Part shown: positions 56,805 through 64,000 of the stretch, piece by piece
Numbering within the stretch: position 1 is the first letter of the stretch
How the letters are laid out: every line of letters starts with the position of its first letter
Source of the DNA: Dehalococcoidia bacterium
Lineage (GTDB): Bacteria; Chloroflexota; Dehalococcoidia; Plut-88900
Reading direction: 5' to 3'
Length of the DNA: 64,000 nt
Assembly (NCBI GenBank): GCA_965197585.1
Contig: OZ240215.1
Location: forward strand, 1,312,001-1,376,000
Notes under the pieces: generated by a model
Told to the model about the DNA's origin: nothing
Database searches by the model: none
The model's input: only the letters and a program-made list of their open reading frames with translations
Program-made: the position numbers and the translations under genes

Positions 56805-57527
56805 CTAGTCCCTGGACACAAACCCTAGCAGGCTTAGGATGATCATGAATATGTTCAGAAAGTTCACGTACAACCCGATGCTTCCCATCACCGCAACTTG
56901 AGTCGCCGCCTCGTAGTTGCCCTGCTCCGCGGCCTGCAGGGCCAATACCTTCATCTGCTTCGTCTGCCACACCGTCAGCGCCAGAAACAACGGCAGCAAA
57001 ACAATATTTATCAGCAAGAACAGCATGCTGGATTGAAGAAGGAAGACGTTGACGAGGCTGATGACTATCAAACCGACTATGCCGATAATCAGCATCGGGC
57101 CCCATCTCGAAATATCCCTCTTGGTGATCATGCCGATTGCGCTCATGCCCACGAACAACCCAGCGGTCAGCAGGAACGCAACTGCGATGGTCTCGGTCGT
57201 GTATCGGGACACGATCCAGGAGAGGAACAACCCTTCCATGGCCGTAAAGGCAAGGTAGACCGCAGTGGCGGGTCCGGTGCGCCCCTTCATAGCCAGCCCA
57301 TTGGCAGCCATCAACATCCCAAATATCAACCCGAACCCCACCAAGAAACCCAACCACCCGATATTCAGAATGACGTCGCCGAGGCCTATCCTGTCCCCGA
57401 CCCATATGCCTGCGCCGGTGGTAATGATTCCCAAGGCCACAAGCCCGTACATCCGGGCCATGGCCCCTGTATAAATCTCGTTGGCTCGTTCCCTGCCGAA
57501 GCCGATGCTGTATTGGTCCCTGAGCAT
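56805..57527 (-). CDS. Bax inhibitor-1/YccA family membrane protein
   Basis: Seven TM segments; G.ITKRDIS..G, LYVNFLNIF..IL. Confidence 0.88.
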   Translation of the reverse strand: MLRDQYSIGFGRERANEIYTGAMARMYGLVALGIITTGAGIWVGDRIGLGDVILNIGWLGFLVGFGLIFGMLMAANGLAMKGRTGPATAVYLAFTAMEGLFLSWIVSRYTTETIAVAFLLTAGLFVGMSAIGMITKRDISRWGPMLIIGIVGLIVISLVNVFLLQSSMLFLLINIVLLPLFLALTVWQTKQMKVLALQAAEQGNYEAATQVAVMGSIGLYVNFLNIFMIILSLLGFVSRD

Positions 57528-57660
57528 GGGTCTCAAACTCCCTTCATCGGTACATACGGTCACCGCCAAATTATACATCGCGGGGTTTGCCCATTAGTGA
57601 TAGGTCAGAGGACAAGCGCCGATAAGGTGCAATTAAGGATTCGCCCAAGGCATGCAATGC

Positions 57661-58419
57661 CTAAGGGCCAGGCGAGCGAGTTGGGCTGTCCTGCGTAGGA
57701 CGGGGATGACTGCGTATCTCCGCCATCAGGAACGCCAAACTCCCGCGCCACAAGTTCACCTGTTCTTCGCCCCAATCGGGGTCGTAGTCCGGGAACTTGG
57801 CCAGAAGCTTCGTCATCATGTCAGAGGTGTGGGGTGGTTCCACGTGTCCCCCAACGGGCTCCAAGACTCGCACTTCGGGAGCTGGGGCTGGAGGAGCGCT
57901 CGAGGGCACTGCCCTCTTCCTAGGCCCCCGCGTCCCGGACTGCCTATCCCGCGGCGTCTTGAAATGCGGCGAAAGCTGTATCTCAGCGTCTTTGGCTATG
58001 CGAAGAAAGAAAGTCATGCCCTTTCGCCCTACTTCGTCCTGTGATCCGCCTGTCTTGAATTTCTCAGCCAGGTGATCGGGAGTTGCAGACCTGAGCATAA
58101 GTCCGTCCAGCACCGGCACGTACGCCCTTTCCACTACCTTATATAGCAGCCCCTTTGCCTCATCCTCCCCCGAAGACAGCAAGCTCTTGAGCGCATCCGT
58201 TGGGTGTCTTTGTGAATCCACCAACCCGAGAAAGGCCAAAGCCGATTGCAAATTCGACTCGGCCGAAGCGTTGACCTTCAGTTTCTTGAGGTAACTGTTG
58301 TCTATCCGGCTCGGCAAGTGTTGATTGGCAAAGTCCTCCCTCAACGTTTCCAATAGTCGTTGCCATTGGGAGTAAGGGGGATACGGTGGTCGCCTTTTGC
58401 CATTTTCTGACCCTGCCAT
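57661..58419 (-). CDS. DUF5343-like protein (putative winged-helix DNA-binding)
   Basis: PPYPPY, PSRIDNSYL, SALAFLGLVD...PT..LK.L, K..TFFL.IAKDAEI.LSP, C-terminal LLAKFPDYDPDW; family recalled, not searched. Confidence 0.7.
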   Translation of the reverse strand: MAGSENGKRRPPYPPYSQWQRLLETLREDFANQHLPSRIDNSYLKKLKVNASAESNLQSALAFLGLVDSQRHPTDALKSLLSSGEDEAKGLLYKVVERAYVPVLDGLMLRSATPDHLAEKFKTGGSQDEVGRKGMTFFLRIAKDAEIQLSPHFKTPRDRQSGTRGPRKRAVPSSAPPAPAPEVRVLEPVGGHVEPPHTSDMMTKLLAKFPDYDPDWGEEQVNLWRGSLAFLMAEIRSHPRPTQDSPTRSPGP

Positions 58420-58487
58420 GCCGTTTGTCCTTTGTCCGGCTTGTCTGGCACTCGTCCGTTGTGGCTATGATACCAGCCAAAAACGGT

Positions 58488-58678
58488 TAAGGCAATATAT
58501 GCCATCCCCGACAACTAAGGCAAAAGACAGTGGCATATTGGCCTTACAGCATTCTGGTTTTGCCTTAGTTTCACAGATGCTTTTTCCACGGCTAGAATGG
58601 CCTCATATTGCCTGAATTGCACCCGAGGCCGGGACATACACCGACCTTACGAGGCAAAGCCCACAAGGCAATATGCCG
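58488..58678. repeat. Array of about 7 (TA)AGGCAA(TATGCC) motifs in both orientations
   Basis: 58488 (+), 58513-58525 (+), 58531-58546 (-), 58558-58570 (-), 58604-58615 (-), 58651 (+), 58664-58678 (+); aactaaggcaaaa/ttttgccttagtt form a perfect 13-bp inverted pair. Confidence 0.8.
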
Positions 58679-58747
58679 CCCGGCGGCAAGCGCTATCTCT
58701 TCCGGGATAGCGACCCGGACCGCAGTTCGAAAGGAGGGTTGAATAAA

Positions 58748-59875
58748 ATGGTCGTAGAGCAGTTGTTAACTAGTAGACCGATTTCCAGATTATCGGTCGA
58801 GAGGGCCCCGGCCCGGATTAAGGTGGTCGGCGTCGGAGGAGGCGGTTGTAACTGCGTCCGACGCATGCTGGCCCACAACGTCCCTGGCGTCGAGTTCGTC
58901 GTCGTAAACACCGATATCAAGTCACTGGAATCAGTGACCCACGGCGCCACCGTCCTCCAGATTGGTGAGAACATCACCCACGGATGGGGCGCGGGCGGAG
59001 AGTTCGACATCGGCGAGAAAGCTGCGGAAGAGTCTTCCACTCTTATAAAGAAGGCGCTCAAGAACGCCGAGCTCGTCTTCCTCACCGCCGGCATGGGCGG
59101 TGGAACCGGCACCGGCGCCGCACCCTACGTGGCCGAGCTGGCCAAGCAGATGGGCGCCCTTGTTGTCGGAGTTGTCACAACTCCCTTCAGCTTTGAAGGG
59201 ACCCGCAGGCTCAGCCAGGCCATCGCCGGCGTCGCCCGGCTCCGCCGCCACGTGGACAACCTCATCGTCATCCACAATGACCGGCTCCTCCAGTTTGTGG
59301 ACCACGATGCCGGGATGACCGAGGCCTTCCAGACCGCGGACGAGGTGGTCAGCCAGGGCATCGTCAGTGTCTCCGAGCTCATCAATGTCCCCGGTGAGAT
59401 CAACGTAGACTTCGCCGACGTCCAGACCATTATGTCCAGCCCCGGTGGCGCTCTCATGGCCATGGGACTGGGACGAGGCAGCATGGGCGCACTGGAGGCC
59501 GCCAGACAGGCAGTGACCAACCCCCTCCTCAACCTCTCCATCAGAGGCGCCAAGGGAGTCCTCTTCTCCGTCAAGGGCGGCGATGAATTGACCCTCGGCG
59601 GCGTCAACGCCGCCGGTGAGCTGATCAACAGCGCCGTCGACAAGAACGCCAGCATCTTCTTCGGAATGTCCATCGATCCTTCGCTCGGCGACATGGTGAA
59701 GCTCACCCTAATCGCCACCGGCCTGAAGCAGGACAAGGGCTTTAACTCCTTCACCGGGAAGTTCAAGGGACTGTTCCCCGGATTTGAGATGAAGGTGAAG
59801 GCCCCTGGCATCATGGGCCGGGGTAAGAAGAGGAAGAAGCGGTCCTCACAGTACGAATGGGACGACGACTTTTAG
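58748..59875 (+). CDS. ftsZ: FtsZ paralog with atypical C-terminal tail
   Basis: VGVGGGGCN, NTD, AGMGGGTGTG, PFSFEG, INVDFADV, TLIATG; AAGGAGG RBS; ends KKRKKRSSQYEWDDDF. Confidence 0.92.
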   Translation: MVVEQLLTSRPISRLSVERAPARIKVVGVGGGGCNCVRRMLAHNVPGVEFVVVNTDIKSLESVTHGATVLQIGENITHGWGAGGEFDIGEKAAEESSTLIKKALKNAELVFLTAGMGGGTGTGAAPYVAELAKQMGALVVGVVTTPFSFEGTRRLSQAIAGVARLRRHVDNLIVIHNDRLLQFVDHDAGMTEAFQTADEVVSQGIVSVSELINVPGEINVDFADVQTIMSSPGGALMAMGLGRGSMGALEAARQAVTNPLLNLSIRGAKGVLFSVKGGDELTLGGVNAAGELINSAVDKNASIFFGMSIDPSLGDMVKLTLIATGLKQDKGFNSFTGKFKGLFPGFEMKVKAPGIMGRGKKRKKRSSQYEWDDDF

Positions 59876-59888
59876 GTAACCCAGGACT

Positions 59889-59931
59889 CGGGGCACGGGA
59901 GGCGACCCTCAACTCCACCTCTCGTGCCCCC
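59889..59931 (+). terminator. Hairpin after ftsZ (no strong U-tract)
   Basis: ggggcacgggagg...cctctcgtgcccc. Confidence 0.5.
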
Positions 59932-60031
59932 ATCCTTGCCGCATCCTGAAATCGAGCCCGTCATCGGATACCGGATGCAACGATAGAGTAGGCCGAGAAA
60001 CCCGAAACTGAGAATTTGGCAGGTAGAAACC

Positions 60032-60787
60032 GTGGCTTTACAACAGACTCTCCCAACCCCTCAAATCCAGCTGGATCCGGTGGCAAAGATAGCTTTCGAA
60101 CGGCCTGCTTTGGCCCTCTGCTATCCCTCCCTGAAGCATGCCTCCCCGGCAGCCGAGTTGACTGCGAGATCAGAAAAGGACGCTGGCAGAAAAGGGGCCA
60201 ATCACCCCACCGTCACTCTTCTCCTTTCCAGCTTAATTGAGTTGGAGCGTAGGGACATGATTGCCATCGGGGCCTCTACATTTAGAGCCAACCGAGGAGA
60301 GGCAGGCGGCATCTGGGTTACCAAGAAGGTGCCCAATTGCCCCGGCAACGGAATGTCTTCGGACCTCTTCCACTGCATCACCCACGGTTACTCCTCCCTC
60401 AAAGATGTTCTCGCCCGCTACTTCCGAGACTCCTTCCGCCAGGACCCCTGGACCCTTGCCTCTACCCTAGGCATGCAGGAGGCAAAAGCCTACGGGTACC
60501 TGACCTCCCAGCAATGGCCCGCCAGTGGCATCAAGGGTTTCCTGAGCCGCATCGGCCTTTCCAATGACATCCAGACTCTATGGGTCAGGGACGGGCTGAA
60601 AGTTAGGGAAGCTACCCAGGCCTCGCGGCTCCTCAGAATTCATATAGACGAGTTTCGCACACGCTCCCGAGACTTATACGAAGGGATGCGCGTTGGCATA
60701 GCCGAGTCTATTAACAAGATGGATGAGCACCTGACCCCGCGGGTCATCAGCCTGCCAAAGCTCAAAAAGAGGTTTGCCGCAAGTTGA
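60032..60787 (+). CDS. Hypothetical protein
   Basis: 251-aa ORF followed by a terminator-like hairpin at about 60834-60872. Confidence 0.65.
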   Translation: MALQQTLPTPQIQLDPVAKIAFERPALALCYPSLKHASPAAELTARSEKDAGRKGANHPTVTLLLSSLIELERRDMIAIGASTFRANRGEAGGIWVTKKVPNCPGNGMSSDLFHCITHGYSSLKDVLARYFRDSFRQDPWTLASTLGMQEAKAYGYLTSQQWPASGIKGFLSRIGLSNDIQTLWVRDGLKVREATQASRLLRIHIDEFRTRSRDLYEGMRVGIAESINKMDEHLTPRVISLPKLKKRFAAS

Positions 60788-61022
60788 CCATATTTGACAA
60801 CTAACTCTCTTTCTATACCCTCCTCCCCCTTATACAAAGGGCCCGACCTCCGCCAGTCGGGCTCTTTGTCTTTATCCTCGATGCCCTCCCACGACATCAA
60901 ACGTCAACTCCATGGAAGCACCCAGAGGGTTGCTCTGTTGCCATGACAAAGCAGAACGCCGGTGTGATCCACCGGCGCTCTGCTTACTTATTCAGTTATG
61001 GGGAGCGTGGATATCTGGGAGT

Positions 61023-61286
61023 TTAACTCCGCCCGACACCTTCCGACTCGGCGATCTTCCGCCGGACAACTTCATCTCGGGGATAGAAGATCGAGTCCTC
61101 GCCAATCACTCCAGCATCCTTTCGTCTCCGAAAGATGAAGAGCTTGTCCCGGGACGAACGCCCAAGCAAGCCGAGCGCCCCAGCCGTGCTGCCGAGTACG
61201 GCCAGACCGCCCAGGGCGATCCCCAAGCCTATGAATTTTCTTCTCTGGTTGATCTTGGTCTCTGCCTTATCGATTGTGGTGCTCAA
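61023..61286 (-). CDS. Small protein with a twin-arginine-like signal/anchor
   Basis: NQRRKFIGLGIALGGLAVLG; GGGAG RBS; hairpin at about 60949-60986 downstream. Confidence 0.6.
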   Translation of the reverse strand: MSTTIDKAETKINQRRKFIGLGIALGGLAVLGSTAGALGLLGRSSRDKLFIFRRRKDAGVIGEDSIFYPRDEVVRRKIAESEGVGRS

Positions 61287-61480
61287 ATGCTACTCCCGGT
61301 GTGAACCCGCCTCAAAGGGTCGGGGCTTAGTTGCGTTCTCATATTATAAGCCTCTGACCAAGCGGTGCAACGGGTCGCATCGGTCCAAAGCGTCACAAAA
61401 GCACACTAACCCGGGCCCCGACGGTCGAAACCCTTGGAATCCCGCATACCACGCCATTTCAGACCTCGTTCAAAAACCCC

Positions 61481-61509
61481 TTGCAATCTCATTTTCGCCG
61501 TGATAATCT
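61481..61509 (+). promoter_or_regulatory. Putative promoter of the cytochrome c operon (TTGCAA-N17-TAATCT, TGn-extended -10)
   Basis: Read directly from the sequence. Confidence 0.5.
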
Positions 61510-61894: not shown

Positions 61895-62455
61895 ATGCCC
61901 ACCACGATCAAAATACTCGTACCGATTGTAGGTCTTGGTGTTGGAGTCATCCTCGTCTTGACGGCGGTATTTTTGACGAAAGCCGTATTCTCCGAACCGT
62001 TCCAGGTATTTGGCATGGGCGCCGCTCCCGAGCAGCCCATCAACTTTCCCCACGACGTACATGTCGAAAAAGTCGGCATCGAGTGCATGTTCTGTCACCG
62101 CACCGTCGATTCCAGCGGACCCGCCGGCATACCCCCCGTTGAGCAATGTCTCTTCTGCCACAAGGATTTGGGCGATGAGCAATTCATCCTTTCCGGGAGC
62201 GAGGAACTGGAACTCCTCAGGTCTCACTTCGATAACGGAGACCCGATTCAGTGGAAACGAGTCCACCGCCTCCCCGACCACGTTCAGTTCCTCCATGAAG
62301 CCCACATAGGCGCCGGCATTAACTGCTCCACGTGCCACGGTGACGTGGGCGGCATGCAGGTGGTAGAGCAGGTCCGAGACTTGAAGATGGGAGACTGCGT
62401 TGACTGTCACCGGGAGAATAACGCCCCTACCGATTGTCTAACGTGTCACTATTAG
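61895..62455 (+). CDS. Membrane-anchored pentaheme cytochrome c (ActA/QrcA-like)
   Basis: Five CxxCH motifs (CMFCH, CLFCH, CSTCH, CVDCH, CLTCH); EQPINFPHDVH, W.RVHRLPDHVQF.H. Confidence 0.92.
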   Translation: MPTTIKILVPIVGLGVGVILVLTAVFLTKAVFSEPFQVFGMGAAPEQPINFPHDVHVEKVGIECMFCHRTVDSSGPAGIPPVEQCLFCHKDLGDEQFILSGSEELELLRSHFDNGDPIQWKRVHRLPDHVQFLHEAHIGAGINCSTCHGDVGGMQVVEQVRDLKMGDCVDCHRENNAPTDCLTCHY

Positions 62456-62489
62456 ACTTGGGAAGTGCACCTAAAGCGGTAAATTAAAA

Positions 62490-64000
62490 TTGCCAGTTAG
62501 CCGAAGACAATTTCTAAAGATCGCCGGTATCTCGTCATTGGGCGCGGTCATATTTAAGGCCTGTGGTTTCGATGCGGAAGAGAACCTCGTCGAGAGCCCG
62601 GTAAACCTCCCCGAAGACCTGGTCACCGGGACCGATAACTGGTATGCCAGCACGTGCCGGCAGTGCCCCGCAGGCTGCGGCAACATCGTTCGGGTTATGG
62701 AAGGCCGAGCCAAGAAGATCGAGGGTAACCCCAACCATCCCCTAAGCCGAGGCAAGCTCTGCGTAAGAGGCCAGGCTGGAGTCCAGGCCCTTTATCACCC
62801 CGACAGGATAGCCGGGCCTATGCGCCGCTCCGGTCCCCGAGGCTCCGGCCAATATGAACGTATATCTTGGAATGACGCCGAGGCAGAAATAGTCCCACGC
62901 CTCCAAAATGCCCAGGCCGACCGGGTGCTCCTGGCCACCGAGCCCCTCAGGGGTAGACTGGCAATGGTCACCAAACGGTTTGTCGAAGCCCTTGGCATCC
63001 GACATCACTCATTTGAAACCCTGGAGCGCTCCACTAACCTGAAAGCGGCAATGCGGCAGGTCTTCGGTGTGGAGCAGTTGCCGGAATTCGACCTCGAAAA
63101 CACGAGCTTCCTCCTCGGTTTCGGCGCAGACTTACTCGAGACTTGGCTTTCCACAGTCCGGTACAACCGCGGTTACGGCCATTTGCGACAGGGCGACCAC
63201 CGAGAGCGCGGGACATTCGTACATGTCGACAGCCGATTCTCCATGACCGCCGCCAACGCCGACAAGTGGGTACCCGTCAAACCCGGCATGGAGGGCATAT
63301 TAGCCCTCGGCTTAGCCTACGTAATTATCAGAGAAGAGCTCGGCGACAAGGCCGCAGCCGATGCCATGACCGGAGGCCGGGGCTTCGAAGCGCTCGCCCC
63401 CTTCGCCCCCAACCTAACCGCCGAAATGACAGGGGTGTCGGAGAACGAGGCCATTTCTCTAGCCCGACGTTTCGCCGAAGAGCAGCCGAGTCTCGCCATC
63501 GGAGGCGGCTCCGCCGGCGCACACACCAACGGTGTCTACAACCTGGCGGCTATATATTCTCTCAACGTGCTCGTAGGAAACCTGGGAGTGGATGGCGGCC
63601 TTCACTTCAATCCCTCGCCATTGTCTCCGGGCGCTGGCAGCTCTATTCCCGACTCCACGTTCAAGGACTGGCAGGATATCGCCAGCGACATGGGGAATGT
63701 GGAACTCCTTATGGTTAGGAACGTGGACCCCGTTCACGGCCTGCCGGAGGACCTGGGATTCCAGGAAGCCATTGGTAAGGTGCCCTACGTCGTTAGTTTC
63801 TCCAGCTTCATGGACGACACCACGTCCCAAGCCGATCTCATCCTGCCCGACAGCACTTATCTCGAAGCTTGGGGCGACGACGTTCCAGACCCGGGCCCCG
63901 GCTACGAAATGGTCACCTTCCAGCAGCCCGTGGTAGCTCCGTTCCAGGACACCCGGTCTTTCGGGGATGCTTTAATCGGCATCTCCAGCCGTCTTGGAGG
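62490..64000 (+). CDS. Tat-exported molybdopterin-oxidoreductase-like subunit (ActB/QrcB-like), partial
   Basis: Manual translation from TTG 62490: MPVSRRQFLK...KACG..., STCRQCPAGCG, KIEGNPNHPLSRGKLCVRGQ; runs off the right edge. Confidence 0.88.
   Translation, partial: MPVSRRQFLKIAGISSLGAVIFKACGFDAEENLVESPVNLPEDLVTGTDNWYASTCRQCPAGCGNIVRVMEGRAKKIEGNPNHPLSRGKLCVRGQAGVQALYHPDRIAGPMRRSGPRGSGQYERISWNDAEAEIVPRLQNAQADRVLLATEPLRGRLAMVTKRFVEALGIRHHSFETLERSTNLKAAMRQVFGVEQLPEFDLENTSFLLGFGADLLETWLSTVRYNRGYGHLRQGDHRERGTFVHVDSRFSMTAANADKWVPVKPGMEGILALGLAYVIIREELGDKAAADAMTGGRGFEALAPFAPNLTAEMTGVSENEAISLARRFAEEQPSLAIGGGSAGAHTNGVYNLAAIYSLNVLVGNLGVDGGLHFNPSPLSPGAGSSIPDSTFKDWQDIASDMGNVELLMVRNVDPVHGLPEDLGFQEAIGKVPYVVSFSSFMDDTTSQADLILPDSTYLEAWGDDVPDPGPGYEMVTFQQPVVAPFQDTRSFGDALIGISSRLG

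Follow-up and report, generated by a model that had tools for sequence, protein, structure and literature searches.

The locus described here lies in a 64,000-nucleotide stretch of the genome of a Dehalococcoidia bacterium (Chloroflexota; assembly GCA_965197585.1, contig OZ240215.1, positions 1,312,001 to 1,376,000), which we call the window and whose own numbering is used throughout. It consists of three genes: a gene for a DUF5343 protein (Pfam PF17278; 252 amino acids) on the minus strand at 57661-58419; a second ftsZ of this genome, ftsZ2, on the plus strand at 58748-59875 (375 amino acids; Tubulin and FtsZ_C domains, TIGR00065); and an orphan open reading frame (ORF), ORF3, on the plus strand at 60032-60787 (251 amino acids), 156 nt 3' of ftsZ2. 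The DUF5343 gene and ftsZ2 diverge from an intergenic spacer of 328 bp, and this spacer holds, at 58487-58677, an array of seven sites of the type TAAGGCAA(T)AT(GCC) in both orientations, recognised from word counts and from relatives. A terminator-like stem-loop found by sequence scan on the plus strand 3' of ORF3 (60834-60869) is likely to mark the end of a ftsZ2-ORF3 unit.

A first-pass annotation of this DNA had described a DUF5343 gene divergent from an FtsZ with an intact GTPase core, without a DIPxFLR-type tail and without ftsA or other division and cell wall (dcw) neighbours, a spacer of about 330 bp with about seven motifs in both orientations and a perfect 13-bp inverted pair, and an orphan ORF behind ftsZ. 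Our domain scans and the sequence itself bear out this description. The DUF5343 ORF scores 29.7 bits against PF17278 (cut-off 27; 31.1 bits in the genome search), is present as a single copy in the genome and is recovered by a profile of 35 homologues at 1.7e-87. FtsZ2 reaches 358.5 bits against the TIGR00065 ftsZ equivalog model (cut-off 295.2) and matches PF00091 Tubulin at 4e-45 and PF12327 FtsZ_C at 6.3e-25. No ftsA and no dcw genes occur in the neighbourhood of ftsZ2 in the window, and ORF3 has no Pfam or NCBIfam match.

The ORF list from which the analysis started places the ftsZ start at ATG 58673; the true start is almost certainly ATG 58748, because a Shine-Dalgarno sequence, AAAGGAGGG, lies upstream of it, because all relatives share the N-terminus MVVEQLL, and because a 10-nt indel seen in relatives and in RNA-library contigs between 58673 and 58748 would break the longer frame. 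The 10 nt in question (TGCCACCGGG) are absent here directly 3' of array site S7, at 58673, when compared with the nearest relatives and with one RNA-library contig. It is this corrected start that gives the spacer its length of 328 bp.

The repeat array in the divergent spacer

Six of the seven sites contain the exact word AGGCAA/TTGCCT, namely S1 (58490-58495), S2 (58518-58523), S6 (58652-58657) and S7 (58666-58671) on the plus strand, and S4 (58560-58565) and S5 (58608-58613) on the minus strand. The seventh, S3 (58539-58544, minus strand), carries the variant TTGGCC, which reads as the exact TTGCCT in 4/4 nearest relatives. The longer site consensus is approximately TAAGGCAA(T)ATGCC. S2 and S4 together form the perfect 13-bp inverted pair (58513-58525 and 58558-58570), and S5 and S7 form a second inverted pair of 10 bp.

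The array is real and not a product of chance. The word AAGGCAA occurs 15 times in the window, four of them inside 180 bp of the spacer, and a count of 15 was reached by 0/100 shuffles; the six AGGCAA words in the 300-nt upstream stretch were matched by 0/200 dinucleotide shuffles. Across the 3.43-Mb genome, the spacer is the sole 300-bp interval with at least four AGGCAA words and it holds six, where Poisson statistics predict 0.74 intervals genome-wide with at least four words and 0.0008 with at least six. Intervals with at least three words number 15 against 15.6 expected genome-wide, which indicates no clustering beyond chance outside the spacer. Near-consensus 11-mers occur 17 times in the genome, 14 of these outside the spacer. 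When the spacers of eight species of the genus are aligned, S2, S4, S5, S7 and the predicted -10 element CTAGAAT stand out as invariant, and the rest of the spacer diverges. Around ftsZ1, the other ftsZ of this genome, there is one AGGCAA word only and no array, which fits a dedicated local regulator for ftsZ2.

FtsZ2 and the linkage of DUF5343 to ftsZ

The GTPase core of FtsZ2 is complete: GGGTGTG and NVDFAD, which we take to be the nucleotide-binding and T7 catalytic motifs of FtsZ, are present and invariant in the FtsZ2 alignment. The C-terminal peptide of DIPxFLR type (D-I/L-P-x-F-L), the docking site for FtsA, SepF or ZipA, is absent from FtsZ2, which ends KKRKKRSSQYEWDDDF, in contrast to the FtsZ of g9, which ends DLDLPPFLRRK. 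The FtsZ2 tail (59700-59875) instead consists of a hydrophobic and basic segment, FNSFTGKFKGLFPGFEMKVKAPGI and its variants, conserved across four genera, after which come a polybasic run and an acidic-aromatic end. This segment, and the tail segments of the tandem FtsZ proteins described below, may be membrane- or partner-binding elements. That the FtsZ tails contain an intrinsic membrane-targeting helix is an idea and not a finding, as the hydrophobic moment is modest (only 0.50 for the best 11-residue stretch of the FtsZ2 tail).

The second ftsZ of the genome, ftsZ1, encodes a protein 49% identical to FtsZ2 that ends ...SRFGGLFKRGSGARTSRSFR, and lies in a minimal mraZ-rsmH-ftsZ-nrdR cluster (G000:C1:902217-906140), whose genes are named from ORF order and sequence features rather than from a family scan, a MraZ-like ORF preceding an rsmH-like ORF. 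The paralogue count, one of the checks that the first-pass annotation had proposed, thus shows that ftsZ2 is not the sole ftsZ. FtsA (PF14450) and SepF (PF04472) gave no match in this 92%-complete, single-contig genome; both control searches were positive in known genomes. A maximum-likelihood tree built quickly from 44 FtsZ rows has a branch, with a support value (SH-aLRT, an approximate likelihood ratio test) of 97, that splits 20 FtsZ2-type rows from 24 others. The 20 comprise the FtsZ2 proteins of the window's family, a third copy from G011, two copies from G054, nine tandem copies from family f48 and a single row with a long branch; ftsZ1 belongs with the 24 others, and its branch is long (0.8). 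Judged from the equivalog model and this tree, FtsZ2 is a true FtsZ paralogue nested among Dehalococcoidia FtsZs, in agreement with the first-pass view that its core is nearer to true FtsZ than to TubZ. Among the matches listed, many members of Dehalococcoidia have two or three FtsZ paralogues.

Two diverged FtsZ paralogues per cell are also found in archaea and plastids, where FtsZ1 and FtsZ2 have different tails and probably different membrane attachment, in the account given in PMC12583498. The present case differs in that it is a separate bacterial duplication within Dehalococcoidia, in a genome in which SepF and FtsA were not found, and in that one paralogue has a dedicated candidate regulator.

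The pairing of the two divergent genes is stable. DUF5343 and ftsZ2 are divergent neighbours in 11/11 other genomes of the family, from four genera, and ORF3 lies 3' of ftsZ2 in 10/10 relatives' loci that include sufficient flank, some of which have other genes on the left. Identity across the family is 78-100% for FtsZ2, 35-94% for DUF5343 and 36-96% for ORF3. The flanking synteny is conserved in 10 relatives and the genome is a single 3.43-Mb contig; the locus is part of the stable chromosomal core.

The linkage extends well beyond this family. A profile search found DUF5343 in 68/151 sampled genomes of the class, and in at least 24 of these 68 the gene and ftsZ are divergent and no more than 3 kb apart, in six Dehalococcoidia families; this count is a lower bound, obtained by crossing DUF5343 places by eye with FtsZ places and adding fetched loci. 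What lies opposite DUF5343 varies with the family. In the window's own family (f1, seven genomes) it is ftsZ2 and then ORF3. In f48 (three genomes) it is three tandem ftsZ genes, the sole FtsZ matches in these genomes among the matches listed, found in three genera (L047:5203-9114, L050:5283-9555, L051:1399-5142). In f6 (seven genomes) it is rsmH, an FtsA-like gene and ftsZ, and in f47, f63 and f36 (five, one and one genomes) a conserved 70-residue ORF, a bona fide ftsA (130.5 bits) and ftsZ. The three f48 copies form three orthologous groups, so that the triplication is older than the genera, and their products end in W-L-S-E-M-G-type segments and arginines. The short ORF of the last three families (69-70 residues, MGTAIEYQKLMTEIV...GGELLHGFLAEL...; L084:4075-4287, and also L081, L082, L083, L085 and L093) is highly conserved between DUF5343 and ftsA-ftsZ. 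Pfam has no match for this ORF, and tblastn detected no counterpart of it in the window's genome (best E-value 0.39).

The partner of DUF5343 is of the FtsZ2 type in f1 and f48, and of the other FtsZ type, with a DLPPFLRR-like tail and FtsA alongside, in f6, f47, f63 and f36. As DUF5343 is paired with FtsZ operons of canonical tail as well, the pairing follows the head of the ftsZ operon and not the odd tail of FtsZ2. Thirteen further DUF5343 loci, inspected with 5 kb of flank, have no FtsZ nearby. A tree of 41 DUF5343 proteins, from which near-duplicates were dropped (L005, L006, L007, L009, L044, L045, L089, L093 and L094), has a deep split (SH-aLRT 99) into two subfamilies, one of which contains all 18 ftsZ-linked rows. 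The second holds copies in operon with dprA, and with topA too where the flank reaches (L023, L024, L026, L033, L091 and L095). Two small genomes of about 1 Mb contain several DUF5343 copies, four in G111 and three in G144, which is unusual for the class.

These wider neighbourhoods bear on whether DUF5343 has a broader role as a chromosome or cell-cycle DNA-binding protein, nucleoid-associated or with many targets, for which the spacer would be only the strongest nucleation site. Homologues adjoin gyrB, dprA-topA, parA-like and parB-like helix-turn-helix genes in addition to ftsZ, most near-consensus 11-mers (14/17) lie outside the spacer, and the three to four copies in G111 and G144 point the same way. 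Against this, the words do not cluster beyond chance outside the spacer and DUF5343 is single copy in the window's genome, and we give such a role little credence.

Repeated words upstream of DUF5343 recur in other lineages, and they change with the protein. Within the window's genus the repeat words keep their positions, and the other f1 genera show GGACAA/GGACAT. Different words are repeated in the f48 spacers: L050 has ATTTCA 12 times, and L047 has words of the ATGAGATGA type. The families f47, f63 and f36 share a conserved non-coding block, CTGGACAAnnTTGGACAnnnTTTGACG, positioned over the -35 of the promoter of the fts operon. At the -35 of promoters in the further families, words akin to those of the array, GG(A)CAA, are thus seen again. 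Upstream of the dprA-linked subfamily there are CAGTCC/GGACTG arrays, with five to seven copies in three loci, a count reached by 0/200 shuffles, which include GGACTATTGACAGTC across the -35 box. Arrays at DUF5343's own promoter are therefore recurrent, if not universal by a crude test, and the word changes with the protein clade. Such a shift of array words with the DUF5343 clade, in three lineages and on -35 boxes, is what would be expected if the gene's own product were the binder. These results answer another check proposed at the outset, in that both the DUF5343-ftsZ pair and the motif are kept in relatives.

Promoters, transcripts and ORF3

Consensus scans place predicted promoters for both genes within the array. 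The predicted ftsZ2 promoter, TTCACA-17-TAGAAT (58570-58598, plus strand), has 10/12 matches and is the best on its strand; with a predicted +1 near 58605, S4 abuts or overlaps its -35 and S5 covers its start. The predicted DUF5343 promoter, TTGCCT-17-TATCAT with a TG element (58467-58495, minus strand), has S1 as its -35 hexamer. In the 5' leader of ftsZ2, just 5' of the ribosome-binding site, RNAfold and alifold predict a hairpin (58690-58712, plus strand), whose position is kept in relatives with a different sequence.

Some transcript evidence is available from RNA-library contigs, which cannot give starts, strand, level or a single transcript, which may include DNA carry-over and whose uncovered parts mean nothing. 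Contigs from four runs of two studies, labelled sponge metagenome or coded, cover ftsZ2. A contig bridging ftsZ2 into ORF3 in two runs gives weak support for a joint unit, and the beginning of one contig, at about 58622-58627, is near the predicted ftsZ2 start, which is again weak evidence. A further contig, 58376-58576, spans S1-S4.

The inverted arrangement of the sites raises an alternative, in which the repeats are not DUF5343 sites at all: another factor might bind them, or they might act as RNA, through an S5/S7 leader stem or, if transcribed, an S2/S4 hairpin, with DUF5343 being for instance an FtsZ partner or modulator. Alifold does draw the S5/S7 stem, and S5 and S7 are fully pairable in 8/8 species, with 9/10 pairs invariant and one U-A to U-G change; in S2/S4, 89% of cells are paired and three pairs have changed on both sides in the eight species. 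The contig over S1-S4 would also suit this explanation, the gene neighbourhood fits a protein-protein relation equally well, and the fold matches of DUF5343 (below) are only middling. Most pairs in S2/S4 and S5/S7 never vary, so that the pairing counts decide nothing, and in a second subclade complementarity is lost in the flanks of S2/S4 but the GGCAA core persists, which is against a conserved RNA pairing. S1-S4 also lie upstream of the predicted ftsZ2 transcription start, and the words change with the DUF5343 clade on the -35 boxes of three lineages. Taken together, we regard this alternative as unlikely. An Rfam search of 57000-61500 at E <= 1 returned a sole chance-level match, to P10 sRNA (small RNA), with 17.9 bits against a gathering threshold of 37 and outside the spacer.

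ORF3 appears to be a family-specific protein. It has only six representatives among 1.84 billion proteins, and hence is restricted to the window's family, and it has no match in PHROGs. Its AlphaFold2 (AF2) model is poor, with a mean predicted local distance difference test (pLDDT) score of 62.7, and the top folds for this poor model are GOLPH3 (3kn1, Z 6.0, 158 aligned) and Vps74 (2zih, Z 5.2, 169 aligned), the next being at 2.8; a protein atlas likewise joins ORF3 to a GPP34 cluster at 0.89. Assignment of ORF3 to GPP34 (PF05719) by sequence was rejected, as none of 15 members has a Pfam match at E <= 10, and a PF05719 search of the genome finds another gene only, against whose product ORF3 has an hhalign probability of 0.1. 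That other gene encodes a bona fide GPP34/GOLPH3-family protein (151 bits; G000:C1:2975097-2975690; L080:1489-2139). A 2025 paper links the GPP34/GOLPH3 family to sponge symbiosis in Actinobacteriota, in the part of that report available to us (PMC11706023). A role for ORF3 as a peripheral-membrane, GOLPH3-like partner of FtsZ2, as the fold comparison might suggest, is a lead only.

Right of the trio the synteny is conserved, and the window there (61895-63998) contains a multihaem cytochrome c gene of c7/c3 type followed by a large ORF that reads, by its sequence, as molybdopterin-type oxidoreductase-like. On the chromosome the array lies about 310 kb from the maximum of the GC skew and away from the skew minimum and dnaA, in a genome whose skew curve is not a clean V and whose replichore positions are therefore uninformative.

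DUF5343 as a candidate regulator of the ftsZ operon

DUF5343 is an uncharacterised family: its name was not found in the literature searched, and no published function was found for it there. The protein encoded in the window is predicted to consist of an N-terminal winged-helix and helical domain (residues about 11-150), a disordered basic linker (160-197) and a C-terminal helical hairpin that bears a conserved motif, LLAKFPDYDPDW. This C-terminal module (KFPDFDPNW) is kept in DUF5343, including homologues away from ftsZ. Structure prediction of DUF5343 alone, a further check proposed by the first-pass annotation, yielded a confident N-domain: the AF2 model from 35 sequences has pLDDT above 90 at residues 11-150 and about 200-235, and shows the order helix, helix, helix, beta-hairpin (16-31, 41-46, 51-63 and 67-73) of a winged helix, an assignment of the model to a fold class and not to a family. 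With an exhaustive structural aligner, the top rows are all DNA-binding winged-helix proteins (Z 4.5-7.0). Over the whole N-domain these are the FokI recognition domain (Z 7.0, 147 aligned), N.BspD6I (5.7), BrxA (5.5), SspB (5.5) and BpuJ1; over the first 70 residues they are TubR (Z 5.5 and 4.9), FtsK-gamma (5.4) and regulators of the MarR, IclR and DtxR types (MarR and IclR about 5), the TubR value being equalled by many other winged-helix proteins. FokI, N.BspD6I, BpuJ1, BrxA and SspB are the best whole-domain matches (residues 3-159, Z 5.2-7.0, 136-148 aligned), but nuclease, methylase or defence partner genes are lacking at this locus, and with 7-14% identity the likeness is at the level of fold only. 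A PADLOC search returned a weak match of DUF5343 to PDC-M34A (5.6e-5). The DUF5343 alignment profile found nothing below E 0.18 among PDB sequences, PHROGs gave no match, and a protein atlas, consulted with PF17278 left aside, gave no usable one.

We consider it fairly probable that DUF5343 acts through DNA binding as a regulator both of its own gene and of the ftsZ operon, MraZ-like in function and outside the MraZ family. As a sequence-specific winged-helix protein, DUF5343 would occupy the seven GGCAA-type sites in the shared spacer and there, probably cooperatively, build up a complex on several sites that covers the divergent promoters. From these sites it would control, by repression or by tuning, its own promoter and that of the ftsZ2-ORF3 unit. 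With sites on the -35 of DUF5343 and on the -35 and +1 of ftsZ2, the simplest mode would be a cooperative repression that can be relieved, and this relievable repression would set the dose or the timing of the FtsZ2 paralogue. The suggestion in the first-pass annotation that a DNA-binding DUF5343 acts on the array, with transcriptional control as the conservative form of that idea, fits both the predicted winged helix and the position of the repeats over the two predicted promoters.

Several points weigh against this regulator model. We infer that DUF5343 is the array binder, where the promoters lie and what sign the regulation has; the promoters in particular are consensus matches and not mapped starts. 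The contig over S1-S4 is unexplained by the predicted promoters, and, with S5 and S7 complementary in the predicted leader, part of the array could be an RNA stem. The fold-match Z values, 7.0 at most, are middling by the aligner's own yardstick, a Foldseek search of DUF5343 against the PDB gave nothing at E <= 0.001 (best probability 0.57, for BrxA), and a winged helix can also serve protein contacts. In the spacers of f47, f63 and f36 no exact 6-mer exceeds shuffles, and in a test for exact words, crude as it is, on 28 homologue loci the top word stood at 0/200 shuffles in eight and at 1-5/200 in four, the rest being unremarkable. Finally, the model makes no use of two parts, the conserved C-terminal motif of DUF5343 and the charged FtsZ2 tail.

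Comparison with known systems helps to place the proposed regulator. The promoter of mraZ itself carries a series of short repeats to which MraZ binds. The candidate resembles MraZ, as portrayed in PMC12957436, bioRxiv 10.1101/2022.02.09.479790 and PMC8475190, in being a sequence-specific regulator at the head of an ftsZ-containing cluster, from which it would control division genes. It differs in that DUF5343 is of an unrelated fold and family (a Pfam scan of the window's protein finds DUF5343 only and no MraZ/SpoVT-AbrB-type domain), is divergent rather than first in the operon, has repeats in both orientations and pairs here with the second ftsZ and not with the mraZ-rsmH-ftsZ1 cluster of the genome. 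The nucleoid-occlusion factors SlmA and Noc, which are activated by DNA, have folds of the TetR and ParB types, unlike DUF5343. Much of the chromosome is dotted with their sites, in contrast to the one array found here, at promoters; the likeness is that a DNA-binding protein in its DNA-bound form acts on FtsZ, as described for SlmA in PMC4117426.

There is a further possibility, close to the type-III-partition-like module of the first-pass annotation, in which DUF5343 bound to the array would also capture or nucleate FtsZ2 filaments at one chromosomal locus, through the FtsZ2 tail or through its own C-terminal hairpin. The architecture is analogous to that of TubR-tubC-TubZ, the type III partition system of plasmids and prophages: a winged helix, a discontinuous array of about 190 bp over promoters, and a GTPase of the tubulin/FtsZ superfamily with a flexible, charged C-terminal tail. 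TubR is among the fold matches, the array occupies a single genomic locus as would be expected of a centromere, the C-terminal module of DUF5343 is conserved, and no FtsA or SepF match was found in the genome. In type III partition, as far as PMC6009700 and PMC7762940 describe it, the centromere complex both represses its operon and recruits the filament, and since the former source has this complex binding the TubZ tail, regulation and tethering are not exclusive. The centromere of TubZRC is made of direct repeats upstream of tubR, with tubR and tubZ in one operon, by the description in PMC6009700, whereas here the genes are divergent, the repeats inverted as well as direct, the locus part of the chromosomal core and the GTPase a true FtsZ by both the equivalog model and the tree. 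DUF5343, with about 250 residues, also has two modules more, no TubY was seen, and the pairing extends to canonical ftsA-ftsZ operons. The partition-like interpretation is not supported. The same DUF5343 subfamily accompanies ftsA-ftsZ operons of canonical tail, and the other subfamily dprA, so that what the pairing tracks is promoters rather than any special tail of FtsZ; homologues that do not adjoin ftsZ have the C-terminal motif too, and the array is some distance from the skew maximum and not at the skew minimum or dnaA. A prediction of the complex of FtsZ2 and DUF5343 scored 0.00 against a mark of 0.32, which speaks neither for nor against binding. Whether as a chromosomal analogue of TubR-tubC-TubZ, as a device coupling the chromosome to the division site, or with ORF3 as a possible membrane-side partner in bacteria without FtsA, SepF and a cell wall, we rate such tethering as very improbable; should it hold, it would give the first example on a chromosome of a polymer of the tubulin family being attached to a particular DNA array.

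What emerges as most likely is that the uncharacterised DUF5343 family provides the ftsZ operons of Dehalococcoidia with a conserved regulator, which is encoded divergently and binds operator sites, accompanied here by a lineage-specific FtsZ2-ORF3 pair. Through this proposal DUF5343 gains a testable role, as a conserved regulator divergent from the ftsZ operon in at least six Dehalococcoidia families. Cell division in Dehalococcoidia is poorly understood, and the locus offers operator sites, a candidate regulator and the lineage-specific FtsZ2-ORF3 pair as parts open to in vitro tests that do not require the organism in culture.

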